Assembly: GCA_050698355.1 (NCBI GenBank)
Contig: JBOHBN010000209.1
Location: 663-64,662 of the forward strand
Reading direction: 5' to 3'
Length of the DNA: 64,000 bases
Source: Streptosporangiales bacterium
GTDB taxonomy: Bacteria > Actinomycetota > Actinomycetes > Streptosporangiales > WHST01
The translations under genes were made by a program, and so were the position numbers. A model generated the notes under the pieces. The model searched no databases. It had not been told where the DNA came from and saw only the letters and a list, made by a program, of their open reading frames with translations. Positions 2,914-29,686 of the stretch are shown here, in pieces; within the stretch, counting starts at the first letter, position 1; each line of letters starts with the position of its first letter.

Positions 2914-3000
2914 GTGTCCTCCCCTCCATCCTGGCCTGGGACTTTACCGGTGCGAGGCACGGCAACTGCGGGGCCGTGGCGAAGGTTTACCCTGGCGGCC

Positions 3001-11907: not shown

Positions 11908-13278
11908 CTAGCCGGGCGAGGGCGCGGCCTCCTGCTTCTTGATGTCCGGCACCTCGGTGCCCCTGAGGGAGGCGCGCGCCGTCTCGGGTGCGCGCCACAC
12001 CGCGATGATGCCGACTACGCAGGCGCCCATCATGTAGTAAGCGGGCCACAGGGTGATGCCGTGCTCCGCAACGACGTACTTGTCGATGAGCGGCACCGTC
12101 CCACCGAACGCCGCTGTGGATATGTTGTACGCGAGCGCGAAGCCCGCGTACCTGACGTGGGTGGGAAAGAGCGCCGGGAAGGTCGCGGAGATGGTGCTCA
12201 GCTGCAACACGAGCAGCAGGCCCAGAACGAGGAAGCCGACCACGGCCCACCCGATGTTGATCCGCATCACAAGGAACGCCGGTATGGACAGTACGAGAAA
12301 GCCGACTCCGGAGATGTACCAGAGCGGTTTTCGGCCTATGTGGTCGGACCATCTCCCAGCGAGATTGATCACGCACATCATGCCCGCGTACACGCAGGCG
12401 GTGATGAGTAGCGCCGTGCTCGAGCTCAGGTGGATTGTGTCTCCGAGGTATGTCGGCATGTAGGTGAGCAGCGTGTAGTCGGTGACGTTCAGCATGATCA
12501 CCATGCCGCCGCAGACCAGCAACGGTCGCCACTGCCGGAAGATGTCCGCCCATTGGGTGGCGGTGCTGGTTTCCTTCTGCCCCGACTCCTCCAGCTCGCG
12601 GAACACCGGGGTGTCTTCGAGCTTTAGTCGCATGTAAAGACCGACGGCGCCGAGTGGGGCGGCGACCAGGAACGGGATGCGCCAACCCCATGCCTGCATC
12701 GCGTCCGGGCCGATGAGGAACGAGACGACCGTAGTGATGACGATGGCCAAGAGATAGCCGGACAGGGTGCCGAACTCCAGGAAGCTGCCGAGGAAGCCGC
12801 GGCGCCTGTTCGGCGCGTACTCGGCCATGAAGGTTGCAGCTCCCCCGTACTCGCCGCCCGTGGAGAAGCCCTGGACCATCCGGAGGAACACCAAGATGAT
12901 CGGCGCGGCGACACCGATGGTGTCGTAGCCGGGCACTACACCGAGCAGGAAGGTGCAGCTCGCCATCAGGATGATGGTGAGGGCGAGGATCTTCTGCCGG
13001 CCGAGCCGGTCGCCGAGTGGCCCGAAGACGATGCCGCCGAACGGCCGTACGGCGAAGGAGACGGCGAACACGCCGAACGCCGACAGGGTTTGCAGCGTCG
13101 GGTCGTCACCTGGAAAGAAGTTTGCGCCGATGGCCGACGCCACGTAGGCATACGAGCCGTAGTCGTACCACTCGGTGGCGTTCCCCATCGCCGAGCCGGC
13201 GATGGCCCGGCGAAGGGTGCTCTTGTCGGGCGCCGCGATGTCGTCGTCGCCCCGGGGTGCCGCGTACTCGTCTGCCAT
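11908..13278 (-). CDS. MFS transporter, metabolite:H+ symporter (ProP/KgtP-like) family
   Basis: Start chosen at ATG 13278 (MADEYAAP..), preceded by GGAGGC. MHS-type motifs include GNATEWYDYGSYAY, GPLGDRLGRQK and VQGFSTGGEYGGAATFMAEYAP. Confidence 0.85.
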   Translation of the reverse strand: MADEYAAPRGDDDIAAPDKSTLRRAIAGSAMGNATEWYDYGSYAYVASAIGANFFPGDDPTLQTLSAFGVFAVSFAVRPFGGIVFGPLGDRLGRQKILALTIILMASCTFLLGVVPGYDTIGVAAPIILVFLRMVQGFSTGGEYGGAATFMAEYAPNRRRGFLGSFLEFGTLSGYLLAIVITTVVSFLIGPDAMQAWGWRIPFLVAAPLGAVGLYMRLKLEDTPVFRELEESGQKETSTATQWADIFRQWRPLLVCGGMVIMLNVTDYTLLTYMPTYLGDTIHLSSSTALLITACVYAGMMCVINLAGRWSDHIGRKPLWYISGVGFLVLSIPAFLVMRINIGWAVVGFLVLGLLLVLQLSTISATFPALFPTHVRYAGFALAYNISTAAFGGTVPLIDKYVVAEHGITLWPAYYMMGACVVGIIAVWRAPETARASLRGTEVPDIKKQEAAPSPG

Positions 13279-13309
13279 CGGGTCGCCTCCTGTAGGTGAG
13301 CCCTTCGGC

Positions 13310-14566
13310 TCAGCCGTTGACCGCCAGGCCGACCGCCTTGGCCCAGATCTCGAGGGCCGCGTCGATCTGCTCGGCTCCCACGACAAGTGCGGGAATCATG
13401 CGTACGACGTTTCCGTGCGCACCGCAAGTTAGCAGCAACAGCCCGTTGTCCGCAGCGGCGCGCTGGGCCCGTTCCGCCGTGTCGGTGTCGGGGTTGCCGG
13501 CCTCGTCGGTGAACTCGTTGCCGAGCATCAGGCCCAGCCCGCGCACGTCGCCGATGACGGAGTGCTCCGCGGCTACGCTACGTAGCCCGTCGGCGAGGCG
13601 CTTGCCCATTCGGCCTGCGTTCTCGACCAGGCCCTCGTCCCTGATCACGTCGAGCGTGGCGCTCGCCGCCACGCACGCAACCGGGTTCGCTCCGTAGGTG
13701 CCGCCCTGCGAGCCGGGCCACGCCTTGGCCATCAGGGCTTCCGGAGCGGCGAGCGCGGAGAGTGGGAAACCGCTCGCGAGGCCCTTGGCGGTGACGAGCA
13801 CGTCGGCGCGGGTGCCGAAGTGGTCGTGCCCCCAGAACCGTCCGGTACGGCCGAAGCCGGTCTGCACCTCGTCCATGACGAGCAAGATGCCGAGCCTGTC
13901 GGCGCGCTCGCGCAGGCCGGCGAGGAAGCGCTCGTTGGCCGGTACGTACCCGCCCTCGCCGAGCTGCGGTTCGACGAAGAACGCCGCGGTGTCGGACGCG
14001 GGTGCGGTCGTCGCGAGCACGTAGTCCAACTCCCGCAACGCGAAGTCGGTGGCCGTGTCCTCATCCCAGCCGTACCTGTAGGCGTACGGGAAGGGCGAGA
14101 CCGCGACACCGGACGGCATCGGGCCGATGCCGGCGCGGAACTTGGTGCCGGAGGTGGTGAGCGCGGCGGCGCCGTACGTCCGGCCGTGGAAGGAGCCGTG
14201 GAACACCACGATGTTCTCCTTGCCGGTGGCCTGGCGTACGAGGCGCATCGCGGCCTCGATCGCCTCGCTGCCGGAGTTGACGAAGAACAGCGAGTCGATC
14301 CCGGGCGGCAGGACCTGGCCCAGCTTCTCGGTCAGGTCGCGCAGCGGCTTGCTGAGCACGGTCGTGTACTGGCCGTGGATCAGCGTCGCCACCTGCTCCT
14401 GCGCGGCGGCGACGACCGTCGGGTGGCAGTGCCCGGTGGAGGTGACGCCGATGCCCGCGGTGAAGTCGAGGTACTGGCGCCCGTCGTCGTCGTAGAGATA
14501 GACACCCTCCCCGCGGGACGCACGCACGGGCGTGGCTTGCTTGAGGTGCGGGGATAGCTGGGCCAT
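13310..14566 (-). CDS. gabT: Class-III PLP aminotransferase, 4-aminobutyrate aminotransferase type
   Basis: Start at ATG 14566 (MAQLSPHLKQ), preceded by GAGGAG. Motifs are GIGVTSTGHCHP, FFVNSGSEAIEAA, LVMDEVQTGFGRTG and TAKGLASG. It is divergent from gabD. Confidence 0.8.
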   Translation of the reverse strand: MAQLSPHLKQATPVRASRGEGVYLYDDDGRQYLDFTAGIGVTSTGHCHPTVVAAAQEQVATLIHGQYTTVLSKPLRDLTEKLGQVLPPGIDSLFFVNSGSEAIEAAMRLVRQATGKENIVVFHGSFHGRTYGAAALTTSGTKFRAGIGPMPSGVAVSPFPYAYRYGWDEDTATDFALRELDYVLATTAPASDTAAFFVEPQLGEGGYVPANERFLAGLRERADRLGILLVMDEVQTGFGRTGRFWGHDHFGTRADVLVTAKGLASGFPLSALAAPEALMAKAWPGSQGGTYGANPVACVAASATLDVIRDEGLVENAGRMGKRLADGLRSVAAEHSVIGDVRGLGLMLGNEFTDEAGNPDTDTAERAQRAAADNGLLLLTCGAHGNVVRMIPALVVGAEQIDAALEIWAKAVGLAVNG

Positions 14567-14581
14567 GGGTAACTCCTCGTA

Positions 14582-14597
14582 GGATTGTTGACAATCC
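14582..14597. promoter_or_regulatory. Palindromic operator-like 16-mer GGATTGTTGACAATCC in the gabT/gabD intergenic region
   Basis: 7-bp arms GGATTGT/ACAATCC with a 2-nt centre. The same core ATTGTTGACAATCC recurs at 23304-23317 and 24722-24735. Confidence 0.55.
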
Positions 14598-14691
14598 GCC
14601 ACGATACAGGCTGTGCTGCCGCCGGCAACAGTGACTCGCGGCGCTCGATACGCTGCGAAGTACGGCAACGTGAGCGAAGGAGTGGTGCGAG

Positions 14692-17005: not shown

Positions 17006-17763
17006 GCGTTCTCCAGCTCCGCGAACGAGTAGGGGGGCCACGGCCCGGTCAGCTCGAACCGTACGCTCGGCAGCCGCGACTCCAACCGGCTGACGGCTGC
17101 CTCGAGGTCCCCGGTTCGGTCCCGTTCCACCAGGTACGCACCGTTGAGGATCATCCGGCCCGCGTAACCGCCGAGCCGCTGGTCCTGCGCCGGATGGCGC
17201 CGGCTCGCCACGCCGACCGCGGCCAGCTCGGCGTGGATCTCCTCGCCCGTCGCGGCGGCCGCCCGCTCGTGCTCCTCGCGCTGCGTGGTCTCGGCCCGGC
17301 GCCGCTGCAGGTACGCGGTCCCGGACTCCGTGGCGGAGTCCTCCGGGACGCTGCGCGCGGCGGCGTCGTCCAAGTACGCCTTGATGCCGCACTCGGTGCG
17401 GCCGTCCAGCCGGGCGAGGGTGCTCTCGATGCTGTCGCGCCGCTCGTCCAGCGTGCGGCGCACCCCGTCGTCGTCCAGATAGACAGTGGCGAGGCGCAGC
17501 GGCGCGACCGAACCGCTCGCCGCCAGCGCCCCCACGACCTGGTTGTGTGCACGCGCGACCCGTTCGAGCCAGCCGAGATCCTCCAGGTTCGCGCGCAGCG
17601 CCTCCTCGCCGAACTCATCCAGGCTCACCGTGCTGACCGCCGCGGCGAGGCCGTCCTGGTCGAGGGTTCGCACCGGCGCGTCCGAAACCCCGCGTACGTC
17701 CTCGAGGGAAGCGGCGGCCTCGCCGCGCGTGATCGCGTAGAGGTAGGTGCCGGTCTCAGCCAT
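17002..17763 (-). CDS. gvpL: Gas vesicle protein L (GvpF/L family)
   Basis: YLYAITRG...VRTLDQDGLAAAVSTVSLDEFGEEAL..NLEDLGWLERVARAHNQVV matches the GvpL/F family. Start is ATG 17763, or GTG 17772 as an alternative. Confidence 0.8.
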   Translation of the reverse strand: MAETGTYLYAITRGEAAASLEDVRGVSDAPVRTLDQDGLAAAVSTVSLDEFGEEALRANLEDLGWLERVARAHNQVVGALAASGSVAPLRLATVYLDDDGVRRTLDERRDSIESTLARLDGRTECGIKAYLDDAAARSVPEDSATESGTAYLQRRRAETTQREEHERAAAATGEEIHAELAAVGVASRRHPAQDQRLGGYAGRMILNGAYLVERDRTGDLEAAVSRLESRLPSVRFELTGPWPPYSFAELENA

Positions 17764-18124
17764 CGCGGTCACCCCCTTCGTCTGTACCGGGTTCCAGCGC
17801 CGACACGCGCTGGCGCAGGCGCTCGTTCTCCTCCTCCAGCTCGCGGTTACGCGCGGCAGAGCTCAGCGAGGGGTCGTCTTTCCACCAGTCGATCCCCATC
17901 TCGGCCGCCTTGTCGACCGACGCGACCAGCAGGCGGATCTTCACTGTCAGCAGCTCGATGTCGAGCAGGTTGACCTTGATGTCGCCCGCGACGACGATGC
18001 CCTTGTCGAGGACACGTTCCAGCACGTCGGCGAGGTTCGCCGGCTGGGGAGCCGGCGTCGTCGACGCCCTGCTGGCCGGGGCCTGGTAGCCGTCGCGGCC
18101 ACGAGCGAGCTGGTCCACGGTCAC
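17756..18124 (-). CDS. gvpJ: Gas vesicle protein J
   Basis: 122 aa with NLADVLERVLDKGIVVAGDIKVNLLDIELLTVKIRLLVASVDKAAEMGIDWW (GvpA/J fold). Confidence 0.85.
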   Translation of the reverse strand: MTVDQLARGRDGYQAPASRASTTPAPQPANLADVLERVLDKGIVVAGDIKVNLLDIELLTVKIRLLVASVDKAAEMGIDWWKDDPSLSSAARNRELEEENERLRQRVSALEPGTDEGGDRDG

Positions 18125-18441
18125 TCCTCGTGTAGTTGGGCGCGGGTGTACCGCCTGAGCCGCCGGTACGAGAGCAGGTCACCGTTCTCGTCCAGGTCGG
18201 CCTGGTAGACGGCCATGACATCGGCGGTCTCCGGAACCCGGTGGATCTCCAGGACCTCCACCTCCAGCTGCCAGCCGTCGTCCGTACGCGACAGCGCCGT
18301 GACCGCCTCCGCGTTACGCTGCGTCAGCTCGGCCAGCTGCTGTGCGCCCGTCCGCGCCACGGCGGCGGCTCCCCGCTTGCGGCCCGCGGTTCGCGACTGC
18401 GTGCGCCCTTGCTTGTTGGTGTTCTCGTCGGCGGTCGTCAT
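18121..18441 (-). CDS. gvpO: Gas vesicle protein O
   Basis: 106 aa with AQQLAELTQRNAEAVTALSRTDDGWQLEVEVLEIHRVPETADVMAVYQADLDENGDLLSYRRLRRY, a typical GvpO. Confidence 0.8.
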   Translation of the reverse strand: MTTADENTNKQGRTQSRTAGRKRGAAAVARTGAQQLAELTQRNAEAVTALSRTDDGWQLEVEVLEIHRVPETADVMAVYQADLDENGDLLSYRRLRRYTRAQLHEE

Positions 18442-18463
18442 TGGCTCCCTCCGTCCGCCGGCC

Positions 18464-18688
18464 TCATGCCCGCAGCAAGCGGGCCATCAGCTGGTTCTCC
18501 AGCTCGTCGGCCTCTTCGTCGCTGAGCACGCCCGCCGCGCGGGCCTCGTCGACCTCCTCCAGCTGGCGTCGGATCGTCGCCGGGTCGTAGTACTCGGCCT
18601 CTGCCTGCTCGCGTACCCGCTCCGCGATCCACGCGGTCGCGCGTACCGGTGCAAGCGGCAACGTCAGCAGTCCGGTGAACAAGCCCAT
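18464..18688 (-). CDS. gvpG: Gas vesicle protein G
   Basis: 74 aa MGLFTGLLTLPLAPVRATAWIAERVREQAEAEYYDPATIRRQLEEVDEA..., a GvpG signature. Confidence 0.85.
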   Translation of the reverse strand: MGLFTGLLTLPLAPVRATAWIAERVREQAEAEYYDPATIRRQLEEVDEARAAGVLSDEEADELENQLMARLLRA

Positions 18689-18689
18689 G

Positions 18690-19442
18690 TCAGTCGCCCG
18701 GTACGAAGTCGTACGGTGCCTGTGGACCGATCAGGCGCAGCCTCATCCGTGCCGACTCTCGCTTGCCGAGGCTCTCCACCGCTTCCTCCAGGCCCGTGTG
18801 CCCGGTGCGGTCCACGAGCAAGGCGGCGTCCAGCACGTCCTCTGGCGTCCCCGGCTCGCGGCTCTCGACGGCGCGGATGTGAGGATCAAGCGCGTCGAGC
18901 ATCGCCGCCGCGTCGGCCGCGGCCTTGCGGCCCAGCACTCCGACGACGAGTTCGCCCAAGCGGACGCTCTGCCCGTACACCGGCTGTTCTCGCGTGGCGG
19001 TGCTGAGGTGCTCGATCTCCGGGTCCTCTGCGACGATCTCGCGCAGCAACGGCTCCTCGAGGTAGCGAGCCCGCAGCGTGTACTGCACCGCTCCCGCGAG
19101 CTCGGCGAGCAGCTCGGCATACCGGTCGAGCGCGGGCCCCAAGCCCGCCTCGAGGGTGCCCTCGTCCGCGACGGTGCCGAACCGCAGCGGCAGAACATCG
19201 CTTCGCGCCGCGACCGCGTCGAGCACCCGGCTGTGCGCGAGCAGGTCGTCGCGGGTCGTGATGTCCCGGCCGGCCTCGATCGGGCTGGCGAGCAGCGCCA
19301 GGTCAGCGGCATCCAGCAGCACGAGGTCGCGCGCGCCGCCGACACCCACCAGATCGCCCGGAAGGTCACCGCGTGCGGCCATGACGCCGTACAGGTAGTA
19401 CGCGGTCGCCTGGCTCGCCTGGCTCGCCTGCGCCGCGGTCAT
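18690..19442 (-). CDS. gvpF: Gas vesicle protein F (GvpF/L family)
   Basis: 250 aa with [49 protein letters not shown] overlap with gvpA. Confidence 0.8.
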
Positions 19443-19894
19443 CGCTCGCTCGAGGATCTACGGCGCGTCTGTTGTTGGCGCGGCTTCTCTGTTTGCTGGG
19501 ACCGTCGCCTGGGCTGGCGCTCGGATTCGCTCTCGTCCTTGTCCTCGTCGGAATCGCCGGTCAGCGTTTCCTTGATGCCCGACAGCGCGCCGGCGGTCTT
19601 GCCCTTCGCGCCGCCCTCGGTCATGCTCTCCATCATCTCGGGCAGGTCCTTGCCGCCCTGCTGCGTGAGGTCCAGCCTGCTCGTCGCCTCCGCGAAGCGC
19701 AGGTAGGTGTCGACGCTCGCGATGACGATGCGGGCGTCGATGGTGAGCAGCTCGATGCCCACCAGCGAGACGCGGACGTAGGCGTCGATCACCATGCCCT
19801 TGTCGAGGATGGTGTCGATGACGTCGGCGAGTGAGCTCGCCTGCGGGCGGTCGACGTACCCGCCTCTGGAACGCTGCGTCGTTGCGACAGTCAT
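19439..19894 (-). CDS. gvpA: Major gas vesicle structural protein GvpA with a long charged C-terminal extension
   Basis: 151 aa. The core [51 protein letters not shown] is near-canonical GvpA. About 75 further residues are rich in D/E/K/R/Q/S. Confidence 0.9.
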
Positions 19895-19897
19895 GGG

Positions 19898-21019
19898 TCA
19901 CCTGCTCCTTCCAGACGTCGCCGGGCGGCGAGTCCTGCGATTGCGGGGTGCTTCCTCGGCCGGTTCTTCCGGCGCTTCCTCTTCCTCGTCCTCCGGCGCT
20001 TCCTCTTCCTCGTCCTCCGGCTGTTCCTCGTCCTCGTCCTCCGGCTGTTCCTCGTCCTCGGCTGCCGGCTCCTCCTCGGGCGACTCCTCGTCGTCCTCGT
20101 CCTGTGGCTCATCTTCAGACCCGGGCGGCTCCTGATCGTCTCGGCCCTCGCCGCTCTCGTCCTGGTCTTCCTCTTCCTCGGCCAGCGCGTCCTCGTGGCT
20201 CTTGACGACCTCGCTGTCACGGATCTCGCCGCGCCAGCCCTCGACGTCGTCGGGGTCGAGGATCGTCTGGGTCATCACGTGCCGGCGGAAGTGCTTGAGC
20301 TCGAGCCGGGCACGGCGCCCCTGCGCGCGCCACAGGTTCCCCGTCTTCTCGAAGAAGCCCTGCGGGTGGTACTCGAGCACCACCAGGATCCGGGTCAGGC
20401 GCGGGCCGAGCTCGTGGAAGGTGACGGTTCCGTCGACGTGGCCCTTCTGTCCCGATGAGCGCCACACGATGCGGTCGTCGGGAACCTGCTCGGTGATGGT
20501 CGACTCCCAGGATCGGTGCGACCAGAAGACCTGAGCCTTCAGGTTGACCTTCCCGTCCTCCTCCTGCTCGGCGTGCTCCACCTTCTTCATGAAGCTGGTC
20601 CAGTCCTGGTACTGCGTCCACTGGTTGTACGCGACCCGCACCGGTACGCCGACGTCGATGTCCTCGACGATGTTGGTGACCTTCACGTCACCACCTCCTC
20701 CGCCGCTCGAGCCGCCGCCCAGCGCTTCCTTCACCTTGTCCCCGACGCCGGAGAAGACCCCCTTGAGCGCACCCTTCGCCGGGGACCCACCCTGAGCGCC
20801 TTCCTGTGCCCCCCGTATCGCGGCCATCAGGCCCGGGCCGCCCTTGTCGTTCGCGTACTCGGTGAGCCGCTCGGTGAGACCCTGTGCCTGATCTACCAGG
20901 GAGTTGGCGCCCCGCTCCGCGAATGCGAGTGCCACGTTCTTCAGCTCGTCCTTCAGCCGGTCGGTGGGAAGGTCGCGGGCAAGCTCGCCCAGGCCGGGTG
21001 TGCTCTTCGCGTCAGCCAT
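19898..21019 (-). CDS. SRPBCC (cyclase/dehydrase-like) domain protein with helical/Gly-rich N-terminus and a poly-acidic, then basic, C-terminal tail
   Basis: Start at ATG 21019 (MADAKSTPGL). The central part VKVTNIVEDIDVGVPVRVAYNQWTQYQDWTSFMKKVEH...IVWRSSGQKGHVDGTVTFHELGPRLTRILVVLEY looks SRPBCC-like. The tail is EEEDQDESGEGRDDQEPP..EDEEEEAPEDEEEEAPEE..RNRRTRRP. It lies directly upstream of gvpA. Confidence 0.65.
   Translation of the reverse strand: MADAKSTPGLGELARDLPTDRLKDELKNVALAFAERGANSLVDQAQGLTERLTEYANDKGGPGLMAAIRGAQEGAQGGSPAKGALKGVFSGVGDKVKEALGGGSSGGGGGDVKVTNIVEDIDVGVPVRVAYNQWTQYQDWTSFMKKVEHAEQEEDGKVNLKAQVFWSHRSWESTITEQVPDDRIVWRSSGQKGHVDGTVTFHELGPRLTRILVVLEYHPQGFFEKTGNLWRAQGRRARLELKHFRRHVMTQTILDPDDVEGWRGEIRDSEVVKSHEDALAEEEEDQDESGEGRDDQEPPGSEDEPQDEDDEESPEEEPAAEDEEQPEDEDEEQPEDEEEEAPEDEEEEAPEEPAEEAPRNRRTRRPATSGRSR
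19971..20060. repeat. Tandem 24-bp repeats (about 3.75 units) inside the acidic-tail coding region
   Basis: GGCGCTTCCTCTTCCTCGTCCTCC occurs twice (19971-20018). GGCTGTTCCTCGTCCTCGTCCTCC follows about 1.75 times (20019-20060). Together they encode the EEEAPEDE/EDEEQPED repeats. Confidence 0.9.
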
Positions 21020-21566
21020 TGGACTTGCTCCCTCGCTGCCGCGACGAGCTCTTGGTCGACCTGCTCGAGCTCGTCGACTTGCGGCGGGAACTCGTCGAAC
21101 CCCCGCGACTGGAGCTGCTGCGCTTGCGCGCCGGCTGCGGTTCGGGTTCGGGCTCGGGCTCTTCCTCGTCGTCGGCCGATTCCTCGTCGTCGTCGGCAGG
21201 TTGCTCATCGGACGGCGGTTCCTCGTCCGCGGGCGGCTCCTCCTCGCCGGTACCCTCCGATCCGGGGGACCGCAACTGCGTCGCGCGCTGCTGGAGCCGA
21301 TCGCTCAGCGCGTCCATGCCCTTGCCGGCAGCCGCTGCCGCGGCCTCGCGGCCCGCGTCGGCGAGGCGGCCGCGTGCGTCACCGCCAATGCGCTGCAGCG
21401 CCGGTGAGGACTCGAGCAGGTTCTTGCCCTGCTCGAGCAGCGCGGTTCTGTCCAGACGCTTGCCGGCGGCAACCGCGCCGAGCATCAAGGCGAGCTTCAT
21501 CTTCTTGGTCCGGCCGAGGGCGTAGCCGATGGCTATGCCGAGCGCGACCGTACCTTGCGATTTCAT
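21012..21566 (-). CDS. Hypothetical protein: N-terminal hydrophobic segment, Ala-rich helical region, poly-acidic stretch, Ser/Arg/Lys-rich tail. First gene of the gvp operon.
   Basis: Start at ATG 21566 (MKSQGTVALGIAIGYALGRTKKMKLALMLGAVAAGK), preceded by GGAGAG. The C-terminus is ..EEEPEPEPEPQPARKRSSSSRGGSTSSRRKSTSSSRSTKSSSRQRGSKSNG. It overlaps the next gene by 8 nt. Confidence 0.55.
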   Translation of the reverse strand: MKSQGTVALGIAIGYALGRTKKMKLALMLGAVAAGKRLDRTALLEQGKNLLESSPALQRIGGDARGRLADAGREAAAAAAGKGMDALSDRLQQRATQLRSPGSEGTGEEEPPADEEPPSDEQPADDDEESADDEEEPEPEPEPQPARKRSSSSRGGSTSSRRKSTSSSRSTKSSSRQRGSKSNG

Positions 21567-21858: not shown

Positions 21859-22524
21859 TCAGGCCTGGTGTGGCGCCAAGCGGCCGATCGCGTCGTGCAT
21901 GTGGTCCTCGAGCAGCGCCAACGCGCGGTCGGTGTCCTGCTCCTTGATCGCTTCGACAATGCTCGCGTGCTCGGCGGCGAGGTCCGCGGGCGCGTGGTAC
22001 TTGCTCGGCAGCGCGGCCATGCACATGCGTGTCTCGACGAGCAGCGTACGCGCCATGCGTTCCAGTCGCGCGCTGCCCGACTCGGCGACGAGCACCTCGT
22101 GGAAATCGAGGTCGCTGCGGCTCAGCGCCGCGTGGTCGCGTTTCTTCGCGGCCCGCTCCATCCGGGCGGCGGCCTTGCCGAGGCGGTTCGCCGCACCCGG
22201 GTCCGCCTGCTGGACGATCATCGTCACCGCGGCGCCCTCGACCGCCATCCTGGCGGCGTAGATGTCGTCAATGTCCGCTGGGGTCAACTCCGTTACGAAA
22301 AGGCCGCGGTGCCGGACGCTGCGAAGCAGGCCCTCCTGCACCAGCCGCTGCATCGCCTCGCGCAACGGTCCGCGGCTCACGCCGAAGCGGGCGGCGAGGT
22401 CCGCCTCGCCGAGCTGGTCACCCTGGGCCAGCGCGCCGGACATGATCGCCTCGCGCAGTTGGTCGGCGATGAGGCCCGCGGTCGGTTCGCGGCTGATCGG
22501 CTTGAGCGAGTCGGCTGGCGCCAT
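21859..22524 (-). CDS. GntR/FadR-family transcriptional regulator
   Basis: 221 aa with GDQLGEADLAARFGVSRGPLREAMQRLVQEGLLRSVRHRGLFV (wHTH) plus an FCD-type C-terminus. It starts 3 nt after the stop of the upstream isomerase-like gene. Confidence 0.85.
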   Translation of the reverse strand: MAPADSLKPISREPTAGLIADQLREAIMSGALAQGDQLGEADLAARFGVSRGPLREAMQRLVQEGLLRSVRHRGLFVTELTPADIDDIYAARMAVEGAAVTMIVQQADPGAANRLGKAAARMERAAKKRDHAALSRSDLDFHEVLVAESGSARLERMARTLLVETRMCMAALPSKYHAPADLAAEHASIVEAIKEQDTDRALALLEDHMHDAIGRLAPHQA

Positions 22525-22527
22525 CGC

Positions 22528-23286
22528 CTATGCCCTTGCGCGATCCGGCGACAGGCGGAACAGCGCGCCGAGCCCGGCGGCCCGCTCGTGGTGGCCGGCG
22601 AGCCGCAGCCCCTCCCAGGCGGTGACCTGGTTCGCGGTGAGCACGGGCTTGCCCGCCGCGGCCTCCATCGCGTCGAGCCATGCGACGGTGTGCAGGGCTG
22701 TGTCGGGCAGGAGCACGGCCTCGGCGTCAGCGGCACCGCTCTCGGCGGTCGACGCCGCGAGCTCCAGCACCGCCTCCCGGCCGAGGTCACCGACGTCGGC
22801 GGCCTGCAGGATGTCCTTGCTGGTGAACGACACCACCTCGATGCCGCCGGCCGCGAGGAACTCCACGAACCTGGCGGCGATGCCCTCGGGGTACGTAGCC
22901 GCGACCGCGACCCGGCGCACGCCGAGCGCGTGCGCAGCCTCGACGAACGCGATGGACGTGCTGGACGCGGGTACGTCGGCGGTCGAGGCCAGGGTGTCGG
23001 CCTGGTCACGCGCGCCGTCCCAGCCGAACACGAAGCTGCCGCTCGTACACGCCCACATCACGGCGTCCGGGCGGTGCGGTGCCAGCTGACGCCACCCTGC
23101 GGCCAGCTCGTCCGGCTGACCGACGGCGAGCAGGTTGTCCTCGGTGTGGGCGACGTCGTCCGGCGTGGTGTGCACGAGCGGGAGCGCGACGCTGGAGCCG
23201 AGCAGCCGCTCGACGCCTGCGTAGTCGTCCTCGGCCGCGTAGCCGGGGTAGAGCATGCCGACGGTCGTGTTCTCGGCCACGAACAC
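22528..23286 (-). CDS. Asp/Glu/hydantoin-racemase-superfamily protein (maleate cis-trans isomerase / arylmalonate decarboxylase-like)
   Basis: 252 aa with VGMLYPGY..., MWACTSGSFV (first Cys motif), RRVAVAATYP and GKPVLTANQVTAWEGLRL, typical of the maleate isomerase family. Confidence 0.7.
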   Translation of the reverse strand: MFVAENTTVGMLYPGYAAEDDYAGVERLLGSSVALPLVHTTPDDVAHTEDNLLAVGQPDELAAGWRQLAPHRPDAVMWACTSGSFVFGWDGARDQADTLASTADVPASSTSIAFVEAAHALGVRRVAVAATYPEGIAARFVEFLAAGGIEVVSFTSKDILQAADVGDLGREAVLELAASTAESGAADAEAVLLPDTALHTVAWLDAMEAAAGKPVLTANQVTAWEGLRLAGHHERAAGLGALFRLSPDRARA

Positions 23287-23302
23287 CTCCAGGGCAGTCG
23301 CT

Positions 23303-23336
23303 GATTGTTGACAATCCTACTGGCCCTTCCTAGCGT
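23303..23336 (+). promoter_or_regulatory. Sigma-70-type promoter (TTGACA-N17-TAGCGT) embedded in an ATTGT-N2-ACAAT operator, upstream of the DUF3830 gene
   Basis: GATTGTTGACAATCCTAC-N9-CTAGCGTCA. The -35 is at 23308-23313 and the -10 at 23331-23336. The 18-mer and the CTAGCGTCA are identical to the copy at 24721-24754. Confidence 0.6.
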
Positions 23337-23383
23337 CAACACCTACCATCGTCGGCACGTCGAAACGAAGGTGGAGGCCCAGA

Positions 23384-23884
23384 TTGGCCAGATACATCGA
23401 GATCTCCTTGGACAAGCGGGGCGTGACCTGTGTCGCGCAGCTGCTCGACGACCTCGCTCCGCGTACGTGTGAGGCGATCTGGAAGGCGCTGCCGGTGGGG
23501 TCCGACGCGTACCACGGCAAGTACGCGCGCAACGAGATCTACACCCTCGTCCAGGCGTTCGCCGACCCCGAACCGGGTGCGGAGAACACCACCATCACCC
23601 CCATCCCCGGCGACCTGTGTTACTTCTCGTTCCCGAAGGCGGAGATAGCGACGCCCTCGCACGGGTACGGCACGTCCGAGGAACCGTACAAGGCGGATCG
23701 GATCGTCGACCTCGCGCTGTTCTACGAGCGGAACAACCTGCTGTTGAACCCGGACTCCGGCTTCGTTCCCGGCAACGTGTTCGCCACCATCACACAGGGC
23801 CTGGCCGACATGCGGGAGGCGAGCGAGGACCTGTGGAAGCGCGGCGTCGAGGGGGAGACGCTGACGCTCCGCCGCAAGGAGTAG
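23384..23884 (+). CDS. DUF3830-family (cyclophilin-like fold) protein
   Basis: 166 aa MARYIEISLDKRGVTCVAQLLDDLAPRTCEAIWKALPVGSDAYHGKYARNEIY..PGDLCYF. TTG start after GAAGGTGGAGG. The family call is from memory of DUF3830 sequences. Confidence 0.6.
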   Translation: MARYIEISLDKRGVTCVAQLLDDLAPRTCEAIWKALPVGSDAYHGKYARNEIYTLVQAFADPEPGAENTTITPIPGDLCYFSFPKAEIATPSHGYGTSEEPYKADRIVDLALFYERNNLLLNPDSGFVPGNVFATITQGLADMREASEDLWKRGVEGETLTLRRKE

Positions 23885-23942: not shown

Positions 23943-24686
23943 TCAATCGAACAGGCGCTGGCCGTTCGGCGCCGCTGTGCCGCCGCAGCTGCGCAGCGCC
24001 GACCAGATGCTCACCTGGTTGGCGGTGAGGACCGGCTTGCCCAACGCGCGCTCGAGCGGCGTGATCGCGTCGAAGGTCGGCAGGTTCGTGCAGCTGACGA
24101 ACACCGCCTCCGCGTCCGGCCGGTCGGCGGCGAGCACGAGCTGTACGAGCTCCGCGTACGGCACGAGCCAGATGTGCTCGAGCAGCCCGAGGTGCGCGCT
24201 GGACACGACGGTGACGCCCGCCTCGGCGAGGAAGTCGTGCAGGCGAGTCGTCATGCTCTCCACGTACGGTGTCGCGACCGCGAGCCGGCTGATGCCGAGG
24301 TAGTTCACGGCGTCGAGCAGCGCGCCGGAGGTCGTAACCGCAGCGGGCGCGCCCACCGACCCGATGGCCTCCCGCAAGTCGCGCTCGCCGGCCATGCCGT
24401 GCACGAAGCTGCCCGAGGTGCACAGGTAGACGACCACCTCGGGCTCTGCAGTCAGCACCTCGGCGGTACCTGCCTGGACGGTCGCGTAGTCGCTCACGAG
24501 CTCGGCCATCTCGACGGTGACGGGGACGGCGAGACGCGGCGTGCGCGTGATGTGCAGCGATGTGGTGTCCGGCACCCATCGCCAGACCTCCCGGTCCAGC
24601 GCGAAGTCGTACGGGGTCACGATGCCGATCCCGTGTTGAGGCAGGACTTCTGCCACCTCGACGGGAACGCGCACGGTCTGCTCCAA
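23943..24686 (-). CDS. Second Asp/Glu-racemase-superfamily (maleate-isomerase-like) protein
   Basis: 247 aa with IGIVTPYDF, VVYLCTSGSFV, SRLAVATPY, FVSCTNLPT and GKPVLTANQVSIWSALR. It is a paralogue of 22528-23286. Confidence 0.7.
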   Translation of the reverse strand: MEQTVRVPVEVAEVLPQHGIGIVTPYDFALDREVWRWVPDTTSLHITRTPRLAVPVTVEMAELVSDYATVQAGTAEVLTAEPEVVVYLCTSGSFVHGMAGERDLREAIGSVGAPAAVTTSGALLDAVNYLGISRLAVATPYVESMTTRLHDFLAEAGVTVVSSAHLGLLEHIWLVPYAELVQLVLAADRPDAEAVFVSCTNLPTFDAITPLERALGKPVLTANQVSIWSALRSCGGTAAPNGQRLFD

Positions 24687-24720: not shown

Positions 24721-24754
24721 GATTGTTGACAATCCTACGGTCGCTGTCTAGCGT
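24721..24754 (+). promoter_or_regulatory. Second copy of the promoter/operator module (TTGACA-N17-TAGCGT)
   Basis: GATTGTTGACAATCCTAC-N9-CTAGCGTCA. The -35 is at 24726-24731 and the -10 at 24749-24754. A GTG at 24762 lies 7 nt after the -10. Confidence 0.6.
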
Positions 24755-24761
24755 CACGGCG

Positions 24762-25733
24762 GTGGCCAACCCTCCAGAACTCGTCGTGCTGTGCGATGAC
24801 TCCCGCCCGTCCGGCATGGAGGAGGTCGAGCGGCTCGCGCGTGTCCGGTACGTACAGCCCGCCGAGCTGCCCGACGCGATCGGTGACGCCGACGCGCTGT
24901 TCATGTGGGCGTTCCAGTCGACCGCGCTGGCCGATGCGTGGCCGCGCGCCCACCGGCTGCAGTGGGTGCACACGGCGAGCGCCGGCGTCGACCGGGTCCT
25001 GATCCCGGAGGTCGCGAAGAGCGACGTGGTGGTAACCAACTCCCGTGGCGTGTTCGACGACGCGATCGCCGAGTACGTGCTCGGCCTCGTCCTGCTGTTC
25101 GCCAAGGGCATGCACGACACGCTCGCCCGGCAACGCACCCGTACCTGGGAGCACCGGGATACCGAGATGGTGGCCGGCCGGTCGGCCCTCGTCGTCGGTG
25201 TCGGGCCGATCGGCCGGGCGGTGGGGCGGCTGCTGGCCGCCGCCGGCATGCACGTGAGCGGGGTCGGGCGTACGGCGCGTAGCGAAGACCCGGACTTCGG
25301 TACGGTGCTGGGGTCGGCGGACCTCGCCGACGCGTTGCCGGCGGCCGATTACGTGGTGGCCGTGGCGCCGCTCACCGAGGAGACGAGGGGGATGTTCGAT
25401 GCGGCCGCGTTCGCCCGGATGCGGTCCACCGCACGATTCATCAACGTCGGGCGCGGTCCGCTCGTGGTGGAGCGCGACCTGATCGCGGCGTTGCGCGAGG
25501 AACGGATCGCCGGCGCGGGACTCGACGTGTTCGAGGAGGAGCCCTTGTCGTACGATTCCCCGCTGTGGTCGATGTCCAACGTCGTCGTGTCCCCGCACAT
25601 GTCCGCCGATTACGTCGGTTGGCTGGATACGCTCGCCCGCGTGTTCGTCGATAACTTCCATCGCTGGCATGGTGGAGAAGAGTTGCGAAACGTCGTCGAC
25701 AAGTGGCTCGGTTACGTGCCGTCAGCCCCATAG
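24762..25733 (+). CDS. D-isomer-specific 2-hydroxyacid dehydrogenase family protein
   Basis: NAD-binding motif VVGVGPIGRAVGRLLAAAGMHV, plus INVGRGPLV and AGLDVFEEEPL. The start was set at in-frame GTG 24762 (MANPPELVVLCDD) and the mRNA is probably leaderless. The track ORF start at 24174 is antisense shadow. Confidence 0.8.
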   Translation: MANPPELVVLCDDSRPSGMEEVERLARVRYVQPAELPDAIGDADALFMWAFQSTALADAWPRAHRLQWVHTASAGVDRVLIPEVAKSDVVVTNSRGVFDDAIAEYVLGLVLLFAKGMHDTLARQRTRTWEHRDTEMVAGRSALVVGVGPIGRAVGRLLAAAGMHVSGVGRTARSEDPDFGTVLGSADLADALPAADYVVAVAPLTEETRGMFDAAAFARMRSTARFINVGRGPLVVERDLIAALREERIAGAGLDVFEEEPLSYDSPLWSMSNVVVSPHMSADYVGWLDTLARVFVDNFHRWHGGEELRNVVDKWLGYVPSAP

Positions 25734-25746
25734 GAGGTAGCCGAGC

Positions 25747-27153
25747 ATGGCAGACACTGAGGGTGCGCTGCGCACCGCGGCGCAGCTCGTCGCCGCGTAC
25801 AAGCAGGGCGACCTCTCCCCGGTCGAGGCCACCCAGGCGACCCTAGACCGCATCGACCAGCTGAACGACACGGTCAACGCGTACTGCCTCGTCGACCGCG
25901 ACGCCGCCCTCGCCTCCGCGCGCGCGTCCGAGGCGCGCTGGCGACGCGGCGAGCCGAGCGGCCCGGTGGACGGCGTCCCGACCTCGATCAAGGACATGTT
26001 CCTCACCGCGGGCTGGCCGACGCTACGCGGTTCACACACGGTGAGCGAGGACCAGAACTGGGACGAGGACGCGCCGTGCGTCGCCCGGCTTCGCGAGACC
26101 GGCGCGGTGCTCGTCGGCAAGACCACGACGCCCGAGATGGGCTGGAAGGGCGTCACGGACAGCCCGCGTACCGGGGTCACCCGCAACCCGTGGGACCTGT
26201 CGAAGACCCCCGGCGGGTCGAGTGGGGGGAGCGCGGCGTCGGTCGCCCTCGGCATGGCACCACTCAGCGTCGGCACCGACGGGGGTGGCTCGGTACGCAT
26301 ACCAGGCGCGTTCAGCGGCGTCTTCGCGCTGAAGCCGACGTACGGCCGGATCCCGATCTACCCGCCGAGCGCGTTCGGCACGCTGTCGCATGCGGGTCCC
26401 ATGACGTGGACCGTTGAGGACGCGGCGCTGCTGCTCGACGTGGTTACCGGGCCCGACGGCCGGGACTGGTCCGCGCTCCCCGAGCCCGTGGGCTCGTACA
26501 CCGGCGGGCTCGGCAGCGGCGTTCTCGGCCGGCGCGTCGCGTTCAGCCCGGCACTCGGCTACGTCGACGTCGACCCGGAGGTCGCCGCCGTGGTCGCGTC
26601 CGCGGTCGACGTCCTCTCCGGGCTCGGCGCGCAGGTGGAGGAACGCGATCCGGGCTTCACCGACCCCATCGATGCCTTCAACGTGCTCTGGTACTCCGCC
26701 ACCGCGAAGATCGTGGAGCCGCTGTCCGACGAGGATCGTGCGCGCCTGGATCCGGGGTTCGCGGAGGTCGCCGAACTGGGTGCCGGCTACTCCGCGGTGG
26801 ACTATCTCGGTGCCAACGCCGAGCGGATGAGCCTGGGCTCGATGATGGGCAGGTTCCACGAGACGTACGACCTGCTCATCACACCGACCGTCCCGATCCC
26901 GGCGTTCGACGCCGGGCAGGAGGTACCGACCGGCTGGCCGCACAAGAGGTGGACGAGCTGGACGCCGTTCAGCTACCCGTTCAACATGACCCAGCAGCCG
27001 GCAGCGACGGTTCCTTGCGGGTTCACCTCGGGTGGGCTTCCGGTCGGGTTGCAGATCGTGGGCCCGCGGCACGCGGACGGACTCGTGCTCTCGGCTGCCA
27101 AGGCCTTCGAGGACGCCCGGCCCTGGACGGATCACCGGCCGCAGCCCGCGTAG
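25747..27153 (+). CDS. Amidase-signature (AS) family amidase
   Basis: 468 aa with GVPTSIKD, GGSSGGSAASVA and GTDGGGSVRIPGAFSGVFALKPTYGRIP (the Ser-cisSer-Lys signature region). Confidence 0.9.
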   Translation: MADTEGALRTAAQLVAAYKQGDLSPVEATQATLDRIDQLNDTVNAYCLVDRDAALASARASEARWRRGEPSGPVDGVPTSIKDMFLTAGWPTLRGSHTVSEDQNWDEDAPCVARLRETGAVLVGKTTTPEMGWKGVTDSPRTGVTRNPWDLSKTPGGSSGGSAASVALGMAPLSVGTDGGGSVRIPGAFSGVFALKPTYGRIPIYPPSAFGTLSHAGPMTWTVEDAALLLDVVTGPDGRDWSALPEPVGSYTGGLGSGVLGRRVAFSPALGYVDVDPEVAAVVASAVDVLSGLGAQVEERDPGFTDPIDAFNVLWYSATAKIVEPLSDEDRARLDPGFAEVAELGAGYSAVDYLGANAERMSLGSMMGRFHETYDLLITPTVPIPAFDAGQEVPTGWPHKRWTSWTPFSYPFNMTQQPAATVPCGFTSGGLPVGLQIVGPRHADGLVLSAAKAFEDARPWTDHRPQPA

Positions 27154-27694: not shown

Positions 27695-29008
27695 CTACCA
27701 GTTGTGCTCGTCGCTCACGTTCGGCGGCAGCGGGACGTTCGCCGGGTGGATGACGTACGCGATGCCGCCGGAGTGCGGCACCCACGCGTTCTCGACCTGG
27801 TCGCGCCTGTAGACGCGGGTGACGCTCGCGTCGTGCGCGGTCGCCGGGTCGTTGATGATGACGTCGCCGTCGGCGGTGAACCCGGTGATGACGAACAGGT
27901 GCCCGTTGGTGGAGTACCCGGCGCCGTCCATGTCCTCCGCGTCGAACGACACCGAGATCACCAGCGGGATGCCCGCCTTGATGAACTGCTCGGCCTCGGC
28001 CAGTGACCGCAACCGCGTGACGAACGACTCCATGTGCGGGAACTCCGCGGCGTACGCGGCGTTGAACGGCCAGTTGCCCGCACCGTCGTAGTTGTAGTCG
28101 AAGGTGTACCGGGCGGCGTAGTCGACCTGCGGGTCGACGTGCGGCTTCGGCTCCACCCACCGCAGCTTGGCCTGCGGCACCCGACGGTTCCAGGAGTACA
28201 CGTCCATCGTGGTGGAGGTCGGTGAGCACCAGGCCTCGCCGCCGTTGTCGTACTGCGGGTAGTGGCCGACGTGCTCGTCCTGGGAGAACTCCGGCACGTC
28301 GAGCGCGACCCGCTTGCCCAACGTGAATTTGCTCGTCGGTACGGTCTCGGTGCCCGGCAGCCGGGACGCCATCAGGCCGATCTTGGACAGCCGCGGCGTC
28401 GCGTTCGTGCCCTTCGGGCGCAGCAGCGTCACCTTGAGCTGGTACGCGTCGATGCTCGTGCCGTCGCTCGCCTTGTAGGTGTCGATCGCGATGTAGCCGT
28501 CGTCATCGCCCTGGCTGGGTACGGACGTGCGGTGGATGTCCCCGTGCGCGTAGTCGTCGCCGGACGCCCAGCGCCCCATGATGTACCACTTCGTCCAGCC
28601 CGGGTGGTTCGCGCGGCGGCCACGCATCTGGATCTGCACCCAGGTGCCGGTGGGCGTCCGCGCGTTCCAGGAGGCCACCGCCTCGGTCGCGCCGAAGCCG
28701 AGCTGATGCACCGGCGAGGTCCAGGTGCCGGAGTCGTACGTGCGCGCGCCGGCGTCGCCGAACGGGTCGGTGTAGGAGAACGGTTCGGCGTGCTTGCCGA
28801 GCCGCAGGCGGTTGCCGAGCACGCGGGTGCCGTCGGTCTCACCGTGCTGCAGGCCGCGCGTCCCCTTCCACTGGTGGTAGGAGACGTGCCTGTCCGGCAC
28901 GCTCTGCTGGCTGGGGGCGGCCGCGGCCGCCCCGGGAAGGACGAGCGCGGTGGTCGCCGCGGCAGCCGTGGCTGCCAGCAGCAGTTTGGTATGAAGCCTT
29001 CGTGCCAT
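27695..29008 (-). CDS. Secreted papain-like cysteine peptidase (peptidase C39-like domain) with an N-terminal beta-rich domain
   Basis: Signal peptide MARRLHTKLLLAATAAAATTALVLPGAAAAAP. Candidate catalytic residues are GEAWCSPTS (Cys), STNGHLFVITG (His) and IINDPA (Asp). Confidence 0.6.
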   Translation of the reverse strand: MARRLHTKLLLAATAAAATTALVLPGAAAAAPSQQSVPDRHVSYHQWKGTRGLQHGETDGTRVLGNRLRLGKHAEPFSYTDPFGDAGARTYDSGTWTSPVHQLGFGATEAVASWNARTPTGTWVQIQMRGRRANHPGWTKWYIMGRWASGDDYAHGDIHRTSVPSQGDDDGYIAIDTYKASDGTSIDAYQLKVTLLRPKGTNATPRLSKIGLMASRLPGTETVPTSKFTLGKRVALDVPEFSQDEHVGHYPQYDNGGEAWCSPTSTTMDVYSWNRRVPQAKLRWVEPKPHVDPQVDYAARYTFDYNYDGAGNWPFNAAYAAEFPHMESFVTRLRSLAEAEQFIKAGIPLVISVSFDAEDMDGAGYSTNGHLFVITGFTADGDVIINDPATAHDASVTRVYRRDQVENAWVPHSGGIAYVIHPANVPLPPNVSDEHNW

Positions 29009-29115: not shown

Positions 29116-29601
29116 CTACGCGTCCGCGCGCTCCCCCTTGCCGCCATCGAGCATCTCGCGGGTCGCCTCGCGCAACGCCGTGGTGCTGAGTCGCAGGTAC
29201 CGGACGACCACCTCGACGTCGGCGTCGCTGAACTCGGGCGCCAGCGCCAGTAGCCGCTGCCGTACCGGTTCGAACACGGCCTCCGCGTGCCGCGTGCGTT
29301 CCGGATCGATCTTCACGATGACGCGCCGCCGGTCGCCTGGGTCGCTGGCGCGGTGCACGTAGCCGGCAGCTTCCAGGCGGTCGATCATCCGGGTGGTCGC
29401 GCCCGTGCTGATCCGCGTGCGGGCGGCGAGCTCGCCGGCGGTAAGCGGGCCAGTCGCGATCAGGATGTTGAGCCCGTCGACGTCGGTGAGGTTGAGTCCG
29501 AGCAGCTCTGCGCCGACCTGGCTGTTGAGCGAGACGGCCGCGATGAACTCGCGATACAGCGGCTCGACGTCGGCGTGAGGAATCTCGCGGTCCGTTGACA
29601 T
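29116..29601 (-). CDS. MarR-family transcriptional regulator
   Basis: 161 aa with LTAGELAARTRISTGATTRMIDRLEAAGYVHRASDPGDRRRVIV. It is divergent from an efflux pump gene. Confidence 0.9.
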   Translation of the reverse strand: MSTDREIPHADVEPLYREFIAAVSLNSQVGAELLGLNLTDVDGLNILIATGPLTAGELAARTRISTGATTRMIDRLEAAGYVHRASDPGDRRRVIVKIDPERTRHAEAVFEPVRQRLLALAPEFSDADVEVVVRYLRLSTTALREATREMLDGGKGERADA

Positions 29602-29686
29602 CCTGTCCTTTCACTGCACAGTATCTGCGCAGTGCAGATAATTCCTGTGCGCAATGGTACCGGTACGAGCAGCGAGGAAGGACCAC

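Follow-up and report, generated by a model that had tools for sequence, protein, structure and literature searches.

The stretch of DNA analysed here (64,000 nucleotides from a Streptosporangiales bacterium with a G+C content of 69%, referred to below as the window) holds a cluster of genes grouped around a transcriptional regulator of the GntR/FCD type and, in three of its intergenic regions, the same 14-bp inverted repeat, GATTGT-TG-ACAATC (the 14-mer), which we describe as a putative operator of this regulator. An original prediction, based on two of these regions, had proposed a duplicated module combining a promoter with an operator, bound by the neighbouring GntR protein and defining a small regulon. 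In this work we describe the genes, the repeat and the promoter elements that overlap it, their conservation in related loci and genomes, and the regulatory switch that they would form.

Genes of the cluster

The regulator gene (21859-22524, minus strand) encodes a protein of the FadR subfamily, with an N-terminal GntR domain (PF00392, residues 19-77, E = 9.7e-19) corresponding to its winged helix-turn-helix (wHTH), and a C-terminal FCD domain (PF07729, residues 87-210, E = 9.7e-23) corresponding to the effector-binding and oligomerisation part. Its closest solved structures are GntR/FCD proteins, and it is 100% identical to a protein of a Streptosporangiales metagenome-assembled genome (MAG). 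The gene is the last of an operon that starts with amdA (22528-23286, minus strand), coding for an Amdase/EutA-like protein, whose likely start is the GTG at 23280, preceded by the Shine-Dalgarno sequence GGAGG (23290 to 23286). Only 3 nt separate the amdA stop from the regulator start, and amdA itself begins 22 nt from the first copy of the repeat. On the other side of this copy, on the plus strand, lies a DUF3830 gene (23384-23884). The second copy is flanked by another Amdase/EutA-like gene, amdB (23943-24686, minus strand), and, in the opposite direction, by an operon (24762..27153, plus strand) encoding a D-2-hydroxyacid dehydrogenase (24762-25733) and an amidase (25747-27153; NF004815, 741 bits, above the cut-off of 506).

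The third copy is found about 9 kb away, between a class-III aminotransferase gene (13310-14566, minus strand) and a divergent gene for an SSADH-like aldehyde dehydrogenase (ALDH; 14692-16161, plus strand; TIGR01780, 583 bits for a cut-off of 646). The aminotransferase gene is the first of a unit (11908..14566) that continues with a ProP-like MFS transporter (open reading frame (ORF) 11908-13386, minus strand), in the same gene order as in two other loci (L001 and L009). The start of the transporter gene is uncertain: its longest ORF shares 77 nt (13310-13386) with the 3' end of the aminotransferase gene, its family matches begin at residue 48-66, and the true start probably lies further downstream. 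The gene of an AraC-family regulator (11083-11865, minus strand) may belong to the same unit.

Putative operator sites in the window

By direct reading of the sequence, the 18-mer GATTGTTGACAATCCTAC is found at 23303-23320 and again at 24721-24738. The two copies are followed by unrelated 9-nt spacers (TGGCCCTTC and GGTCGCTGT, respectively) and then by the 9-mer CTAGCGTCA (23330-23338 and 24748-24756). In both modules, a TTGACA hexamer (23308-23313 and 24726-24731) is followed, exactly 17 nt on, by TAGCGT (23331-23336 and 24749-24754). The duplicated module is thus confirmed at both places. The palindrome originally described, ATTGT-N2-ACAAT, is present as well, but its arms are longer, the full inverted repeat of both modules being GATTGT-TG-ACAATC, with 6-bp arms. 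Similarly, both sites proposed at first are real and intergenic, but counting two of them was too low, since a third copy (14583-14596) had been missed, located inside a perfect 7+2+7 repeat (GGATTGTTGACAATCC, 14582-14597). These three exact copies of the 14-mer in 64 kb compare with an expectation of 0.00, which is also the chance expectation (from shuffles of the window) for the 18-mer with up to 3 mismatches.

The three sites, designated operators O1 (23303..23316, a predicted site for a GntR/FCD dimer), O2 (24721..24734) and O3 (14582..14597, GGATTGT-TG-ACAATCC), all occupy short divergent intergenic regions between functionally linked genes. O1 is placed between amdA (GTG at 23280 or 23286, minus strand) and the DUF3830 gene (TTG at 23384), O2 between amdB (TTG at 24686, minus strand) and the dehydrogenase gene (GTG at 24762), and O3 between the aminotransferase and ALDH genes. 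O3 differs from the other two in that TTGACA has no -10 element at 17 nt and the CCTAC extension of the repeat is found on the opposite strand. It lies 4 nt upstream of the aminotransferase Shine-Dalgarno sequence and would therefore lie at or just after the start of the aminotransferase transcript.

The best other match in the window, GATTGTGGGCAACC at 38921-38934 (2 mismatches), was taken as chance, the number of such matches being equal to the chance expectation; it is overlapped by long ORFs on both strands and may be coding. No Rfam family was matched at gathering thresholds between 11000 and 28000, so nothing in this interval points to a known riboswitch or small RNA.

Conservation in orthologous loci

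Orthologous loci were fetched through homologues of the window's GntR protein at 58-67% identity, hence independently of the motif, and they come from Streptosporangiales, Aeromicrobium, a Thermocrispum-like organism, Haloglycomyces, Amycolatopsis and Nocardioidaceae. All of them share the same gene set (Amidase, 2-Hacid_dh, Amdase genes, GntR, ALDH, Aminotran_3 and DUF3830) and all of them carry the 14-mer with 0-1 mismatch, confined to the intergenic regions of the cluster and embedded in DNA that cannot be aligned. Counterparts of O1 are present in the Amdase|DUF3830 (or ELFV-DUF3830) intergenic regions of L001 and L009, O2 is kept in the Amdase|2-hydroxyacid dehydrogenase region of 14 other genomes, and the counterpart of O3 is kept in the ALDH|aminotransferase region of L001, L004, L005, L006, L007, L009, L035, L092, L096 and L110. 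In Aeromicrobium, the 14-mer additionally precedes an Ehu-type ABC transporter operon and is also found between an M24 hydrolase gene and the GntR gene.

The Amdase and GntR genes keep their order, the stop of the first and the start of the second being 3 nt apart in the window and overlapping elsewhere, and in four loci (L004, L092, L127 and L077) the operator stands directly upstream of the GntR gene. Several rearrangements can also be seen around this core. In Aeromicrobium, Amycolatopsis and Nocardioidaceae, the ALDH gene comes right after the GntR gene. In Kocuria aegyptia (L013, position 1489), a single operator lies directly between the aminotransferase and 2-hydroxyacid dehydrogenase genes, the two halves of the regulon, 9 kb apart in the window, being fused there. 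In an Aeromicrobium locus (L004, 6514-9868), the regulon gains several genes preceded by operators, for an EhuB-type ectoine/hydroxyectoine binding protein with its ABC transporter, a member of the MR_MLE enolase superfamily and a DoeA-like M24 hydrolase.

Predicted plus-strand promoters at O1 and O2

Actinobacteria typically have TAnnnT -10 elements and leaderless mRNAs, both of which have reportedly been documented for the group. The predicted promoters of the DUF3830 gene (23308..23336, plus strand) and of the dehydrogenase-amidase operon (24726..24764, plus strand) would have this form, with the TTGACA at the operator centre as -35, a 17-nt spacer and TAGCGT as -10. When all orthologous sites are oriented by TTGACA, a TAnnnT hexamer is found 16-18 nt after it in 17/17 sites that face the dehydrogenase (15 genomes) or DUF3830 (2 sites), the spacing being 17 nt in 12 of these 17. 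Among the hexamers seen (TAGCGT, TACCGT, TAGCCT, TAGAGT, TAACGT, TAGGGT, TACGGT and TAAGGT), only T1, A2 and T6 are invariant, while the middle three positions vary and the spacer sequence is not conserved; by this comparison, the pattern is that expected of an actinobacterial -10 rather than of an additional site for protein binding. Two sites outside the 17, whose downstream gene could not be assigned by script (L001 9184 and L009 9214), have the same TAnnnT hexamer; they precede a glutamate-dehydrogenase-like (ELFV) gene and, after it, DUF3830. The O1-type arrangement, TTGACA-N17/18-TAnnnT, reads TACCGT in L001 and TAGCCT in both L009 and L120. None of the 13 sites facing ALDH or aminotransferase has TAnnnT 16-19 nt after TTGACA, and the -10 would thus be a property of particular promoters and not a by-product of the operator. 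Altogether, the comparative support for the predicted -35/-10 assignment at O1 and O2 is strong.

The position of the start codons also bears on these promoters. An in-frame start codon is found 6-9 nt past the -10, with no intervening stop, in 9 of the 15 dehydrogenase sites (the window and 8 orthologues). At O2, no Shine-Dalgarno sequence precedes the GTG at 24762, which starts 7 nt past TAGCGT; such a geometry is that of leaderless mRNAs, and the dehydrogenase-amidase transcript is probably one of them. O1 has a different geometry: transcription of the DUF3830 gene is predicted to start at about 23341-23345, leaving a 5' untranslated region (5'UTR) of ~40 nt with the Shine-Dalgarno sequence GGTGGAGG before the TTG at 23384. 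Transcription start maps exist for M. smegmatis and M. tuberculosis; neither species is among the DUF3830 homologues listed or the cluster members examined, which are environmental Mycolicibacterium, M. decipiens and Kribbella.

Probable opposite-strand promoters

In the original prediction, the end of the 18-mer and the 9-mer belonged to a plus-strand module. This holds, but both would also carry promoter elements of the opposite strand, which go beyond that account. Read on the other strand, the ATC of the operator arm and the next three bases (within the CCTAC end of the 18-mer) give TAGGAT in the window and TATGAT or TACGAT elsewhere. The TAGGAT at 23314..23319 (minus strand), which overlaps the operator arm, is likely to be the -10 of the amdA-gntR operon, with the predicted transcription start inside O1, and the one at 24732..24737 (minus strand) is the likely -10 of amdB. 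A TAnGAT hexamer overlaps the operator arm in 16/20 orthologous sites, and the only site without a divergent gene (L004 7474) is also without the hexamer. In 8 genomes, mostly Pseudonocardiales, a perfect TTGACA stands 16 nt upstream of TAnGAT, as the complement of a conserved TGTCAA that follows the top-strand -10. The starts predicted for the opposite strand give 5'UTRs of ~27-39 nt, which hold the GGAGG Shine-Dalgarno sequences of amdA and amdB. Together with the 3-nt gap between amdA and the regulator gene, the TAGGAT over the operator arm speaks in favour of the proposed control of the regulator's own divergent operon.

At O3, -10-like hexamers are found on both sides of the repeat (14580..14606), TAGGAT on the plus strand (14580-14585), facing ALDH, and TATCGT on the minus strand (14606 to 14601), facing the aminotransferase; we infer that they are promoter elements.

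The bases that follow the top-strand -10 (GCGTCAACAC, 23334-23343 in the window) repeat the GT-CA-AC core of the operator in the opposite orientation, as do those of L005, L006, L007, L026, L035, L039, L069 and L096; the Pseudonocardiales version is GTGTCAAC. This repeat could be the -35 of the opposite promoter, given the perfect TTGACA in 8 genomes, or a weak auxiliary operator.

Distribution of the 14-mer across genomes

An exact search for the 14-mer over 185,579 species genomes gave at least 119 matches, and the figures below concern the 119 listed. Orthologous clusters adjoin 17 of them (in Kocuria, Mycolicibacterium, Amycolatopsis, Pseudonocardia, Arthrobacter, Nocardioides, Nocardiopsis, Haloechinothrix and others), and a distant GntR/FCD gene (29-49% identity) starts 10-165 bp from each of 13 further matches. 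An association with the cluster or with a GntR/FCD gene was seen for 27/42 matches in DNA with a G+C content of at least 60%, and for 0/59 in DNA below 50%; one more high-G+C match (L065) is situated between another GntR/FCD gene and an M24 hydrolase gene. The links to GntR/FCD genes extend to Betaproteobacteria, Gammaproteobacteria and Verrucomicrobia. The repeated occurrence of the 14-mer with GntR/FCD genes, both in all fetched loci and in part of these matches, agrees with the earlier proposal that the neighbouring GntR protein binds it, and makes this protein by far the best candidate binder of the window palindromes.

The betaproteobacterial cases lead to a curated family, TIGR03338 phnR_burk (2-aminoethylphosphonate-associated, from Betaproteobacteria). 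Three tested betaproteobacterial GntR proteins encoded beside the 14-mer exceed the cut-off of this family (275-342 bits, for a cut-off of 271.5). It is also the best NCBIfam match of the window's regulator, which scores 143.1 bits, below the cut-off. In Ramlibacter, Bordetella and a Burkholderiales MAG, the gene of the family member is immediately preceded by exactly this 14-mer (GATTGTTGACAATC), oriented with TTGACA towards the gene; similar GntR/FCD genes of Polaromonas and further Betaproteobacteria show the arrangement too. The wHTH recognition region (GVSRGPxREA...GLxR...RGxFV) is common to the window's regulator and the betaproteobacterial proteins, whereas the FCD domains diverge and the overall identity is 28-31%. 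The predicted targets differ as well, the window's not being phosphonate genes (phnW, phnX, phnA, phnY); in particular, the phosphonoacetaldehyde dehydrogenase model gives 277 bits versus a cut-off of 636. This comparison assigns the palindrome, as an operator type, to a clade of PhnR_burk-like GntR/FCD proteins; it is not specific to the window's genome or regulator. We found no published operator for the TIGR03338 phnR_burk family in the literature, and the 14-mer suggests a candidate.

Two of the betaproteobacterial phnR_burk loci (L024, ~2990-3010, and L054, ~5885-5905) have a related element, TTGTCAATTGTTT, ~7 nt upstream of the 14-mer, which reads TGTCAATGGTTT in a third (L114, ~1525-1545); it may be a second operator. 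The exact 14-mer is also found upstream of genes for PIG-L/LmbE-family deacetylases in Rhodococcus opacus (L047, 7774), where a RraA-like aldolase gene comes after the deacetylase gene, and in Cohnella ginsengisoli (L080, 2564), where a GntR-like HTH fragment is nearby. The same operator type may therefore serve further regulons.

Proposed switch and alternative explanations

A GT-N2-AC core within an inverted repeat is reportedly established for operators of the GntR/FadR type, and an inverted repeat of the GT-Nx-AC form is found here at three divergent regions, by sequence as well as by conservation. We consider it likely, with good confidence, that GATTGT-TG-ACAATC is the operator of the GntR/FCD regulator encoded at 21859-22524, and that each of its three copies is the core of an overlapping pair of divergent promoters. 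At O1 and O2, the central TTGACA would be the -35 of a plus-strand promoter, driving the DUF3830 gene at O1 and the dehydrogenase-amidase operon at O2, and the right operator arm with three more bases would be the -10 (TAGGAT) of an opposite promoter for the Amdase-like genes. The operator would thus span the top-strand -35 (about -41 to -28 at O2) together with the -10/+1 region of the bottom-strand promoter, while O3 would lie at about +1 of both the aminotransferase-transporter and ALDH promoters. In the absence of inducer, one GntR dimer per operator would keep RNA polymerase off both promoters, until a pathway metabolite binds to the FCD domain and, as in other members of the family, causes release. 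Six transcription units would be repressed in this way, the regulator's own included, because its gene follows amdA at a 3-nt gap. The small regulon initially proposed does exist on this account, but it is larger, with three operators and with the aminotransferase-MFS and ALDH units among the six. In this scheme, the anatomy of the sites, their conservation and their link to the regulator are observed, and binding, transcription starts, the sign of regulation and the effector are inferred.

Several observations weigh against this interpretation, or at least against parts of it. One concerns the -35 itself: the central TG of the repeat is kept even where no -10 follows at 17 nt, namely in betaproteobacterial sites and in those of the ALDH|aminotransferase class, so that TTGACA would be partly an operator feature and not solely a -35. 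The opposite-strand promoters are also imperfect in the window, where the -35 candidates for TAGGAT are poor (TTGACG at only 14 nt, or a 2/6 match at 16 nt). CCTAC could be the outer part of a longer operator arm instead of a -10, and in some betaproteobacterial sites GTAGATTGT..ACAATCTAC is found on both sides. A promoter scanner based on the E. coli consensus does not call TTGACA-N17-TAGCGT, in which TAGCGT matches TATAAT at 3/6 positions (the scanner needs at least 4/6); its only proposal was TAGACA-N17-AACAAT, on the minus strand at O2. We judged this type of scanner unsuited to actinobacterial -10 elements, and its result not to be evidence against the promoters. Additionally, the genome matches were chosen by the exact 14-mer, which makes invariance within it circular in that subset, repression rather than activation is read from position only, and we found no published work on the 14-mer operator, the regulon, DUF3830 or the regulator in the literature.

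A first alternative reading concerns the sign of regulation. Some FadR-family proteins activate transcription, and the GntR/FCD protein could bind the same sites as an activator or in a dual role, as FadR does at fabA. The centre of the O2 operator is at about -34.5, not far from class II activator positions, and position is what repression is deduced from. Activation fits the operator geometry poorly: the operator holds a perfect -35 and overlaps the opposite -10/+1, so that sigma region 4 and open-complex formation would face competition from a bound dimer, and O3 lies between a -10 and the aminotransferase Shine-Dalgarno sequence. Catabolic regulators of the FadR subfamily are, moreover, mostly inducer-released repressors, and we regard the activator reading as unlikely. 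The protein bound could also be another one, namely the AraC-family regulator (11083-11865), the MarR protein (29116-29601) or an unlinked factor, and the AraC gene does follow the aminotransferase-MFS genes in both the window and L001. However, the AraC and MarR genes are not conserved, being absent from most of the loci that keep the operator (L004, L005, L006, L007 and L009), the identical 14-mer is independently tied to GntR/FCD genes in Betaproteobacteria, Gammaproteobacteria and Verrucomicrobia, and direct repeats, rather than a short symmetric inverted one, are the usual targets of AraC proteins; another binder is therefore very improbable.

Two further explanations dispense with a dedicated regulator or with selection on the sites. 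The module could be a mere strong housekeeping-type promoter at unrelated genes, with an incidental palindrome, as TTGACA is the consensus -35 and TTGACA-N17-TAnnnT a complete promoter. We hold this to be extremely improbable, since the full 14-mer is found three times in 64 kb, always within one functional cluster, and tracks GntR/FCD genes across phyla among the matches listed, since O3 and 13 orthologous ALDH|aminotransferase sites keep the palindrome without a -10 at 16-19 nt, and since both arms, GATTGT and ACAATC, are conserved, whereas a -35 needs six bases. Finally, each of the two modules lies upstream of a minus-strand Amdase-family paralogue, and their identity might come from a recent duplication, or gene conversion, of an Amdase gene with its upstream region. 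Nevertheless, the amdA and amdB proteins are only 39% identical, the 9-nt spacer and all the DNA flanking the two motifs differ and do not align, and the same elements are present at both positions in other actinomycete orders. The identity of the modules would thus have been kept by selection, and a recent duplication, already effectively refuted by these comparative data, is hardly credible.

Relation to known systems and possible pathway

As an operator of the GntR/FCD regulator, the 14-mer would belong to a well-known type of system. The window's protein has the architecture of FadR, PdhR, LldR, CsiR and NanR (an N-terminal GntR wHTH and a C-terminal all-helical FCD domain), and it shares with the FadR subfamily a short inverted-repeat operator with a GT...AC core, a regulator gene within or beside its catabolic genes and likely autoregulation. 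The differences are that its matches to CsiR, LldR and NanR are weak (58, 54 and 66 bits, respectively, all far under the cut-offs), that the operator sequence and its 2-nt centre are distinct, and that the centre is a consensus -35, with one operator serving two overlapping divergent promoters. The sites described for PmiR are GC-rich and unrelated to the 14-mer (PMC9728974).

The composition of the cluster is reminiscent of ectoine catabolism. The known ectoine regulator, EnuR (EhuR), is of the MocR type (PMC8739950) and acts as a GntR repressor of ectoine and hydroxyectoine catabolism; in the clusters under its control, EutA and EhuABCD are accompanied by a class-III aminotransferase (Atf/DoeD), an M24 hydrolase and an SSADH-like dehydrogenase (Ssd/DoeC) (PMC8739950, PMC13188858). 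The window's regulon holds look-alikes of these components, with two EutA-like proteins (the EutA match being below the cut-off), an aminotransferase similar to GabT/DoeD, an ALDH similar to SSADH/DoeC and an MFS transporter similar to ProP. The regulators belong to different subfamilies, the effector domain of EnuR being PLP-dependent aminotransferase-like, versus FCD in the window's GntR, and the amidase, DUF3830 and 2-hydroxyacid dehydrogenase are found in the window instead of other ectoine genes; EutD/DoeA, EutE/DoeB, EutB and EutC were not found among the genes scanned at 11083-31369. The Aeromicrobium additions (an EhuB-type binding protein with 225 bits, above the cut-off of 191, and a DoeA-like M24 hydrolase with 221 bits, below the cut-off of 575) give hints of a compatible-solute-like substrate, and the Haloglycomyces locus adds a tartrate dehydrogenase. 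Ectoine catabolism was not adopted as the pathway, since EutD and EutE are absent in the window and most matches are under the family cut-offs; judging from their families, several components resemble those of compatible-solute or omega-amino-acid catabolism.

A broader proposal can be put forward only tentatively, and we hold it to be possible but rather doubtful. The 14-mer would be a portable element, operator and promoter in one, with a consensus -35 at its centre. It would have stayed nearly unchanged throughout a PhnR_burk-like GntR/FCD clade that spans Actinomycetota, Beta- and Gammaproteobacteria and Verrucomicrobiota, whose effector domains and regulons have meanwhile diverged. Its actinomycete copies would mark out a hitherto unrecognised regulon for an uncharacterised catabolic route, made up of an amidase, DUF3830, two EutA-like enzymes, a D-2-hydroxyacid dehydrogenase, an aminotransferase, an ALDH and ProP- or Ehu-type uptake. 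The substrate of this route might be a compatible solute related to ectoine, or some other omega-amino compound, and control would be by an FCD-type regulator and not by the MocR-type EnuR.

What the analysis provides is a prediction of a precise operator, and of a regulon of ~10 genes in six units, for an uncharacterised GntR/FCD regulator that is widespread in actinomycetes (Streptosporangiales, Pseudonocardiales, Nocardioidaceae, Mycolicibacterium, Kocuria and Arthrobacter, among others). The orphan DUF3830 and two EutA-like proteins would be tied to the amidase, dehydrogenase, aminotransferase and ALDH as one co-regulated pathway, which narrows the search for the substrate. The design is compact, with one 14-bp site predicted to combine the roles of operator, of -35 for one promoter and of -10/+1 region for its divergent counterpart. 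Nevertheless, this is a typical FadR-subfamily repressor-operator system, an ordinary bacterial switch, which makes for a useful annotation and leaves the understanding of such switches unchanged; the novelty is limited to the regulator and the breakdown pathway, for which such a switch had not been described.

Neighbouring genes

Beyond a peptidase C39-like gene (27695-29008), the window contains a divergent pair formed by the MarR gene (29116-29601) and an MFS transporter gene (571 aa), together spanning 29116-31369. No operator-like site is present at this pair, which appears to be an unrelated efflux module. On the other side, a gas-vesicle gene cluster (17002-21208, minus strand; GvpL/F twice, GvpO, GvpG, a GvpA-like protein and a Polyketide_cyc-domain protein) sits between the GntR cluster and the ALDH|aminotransferase pair; its place is taken in L001, a related Streptosporangiales locus, by four small genes without annotation.

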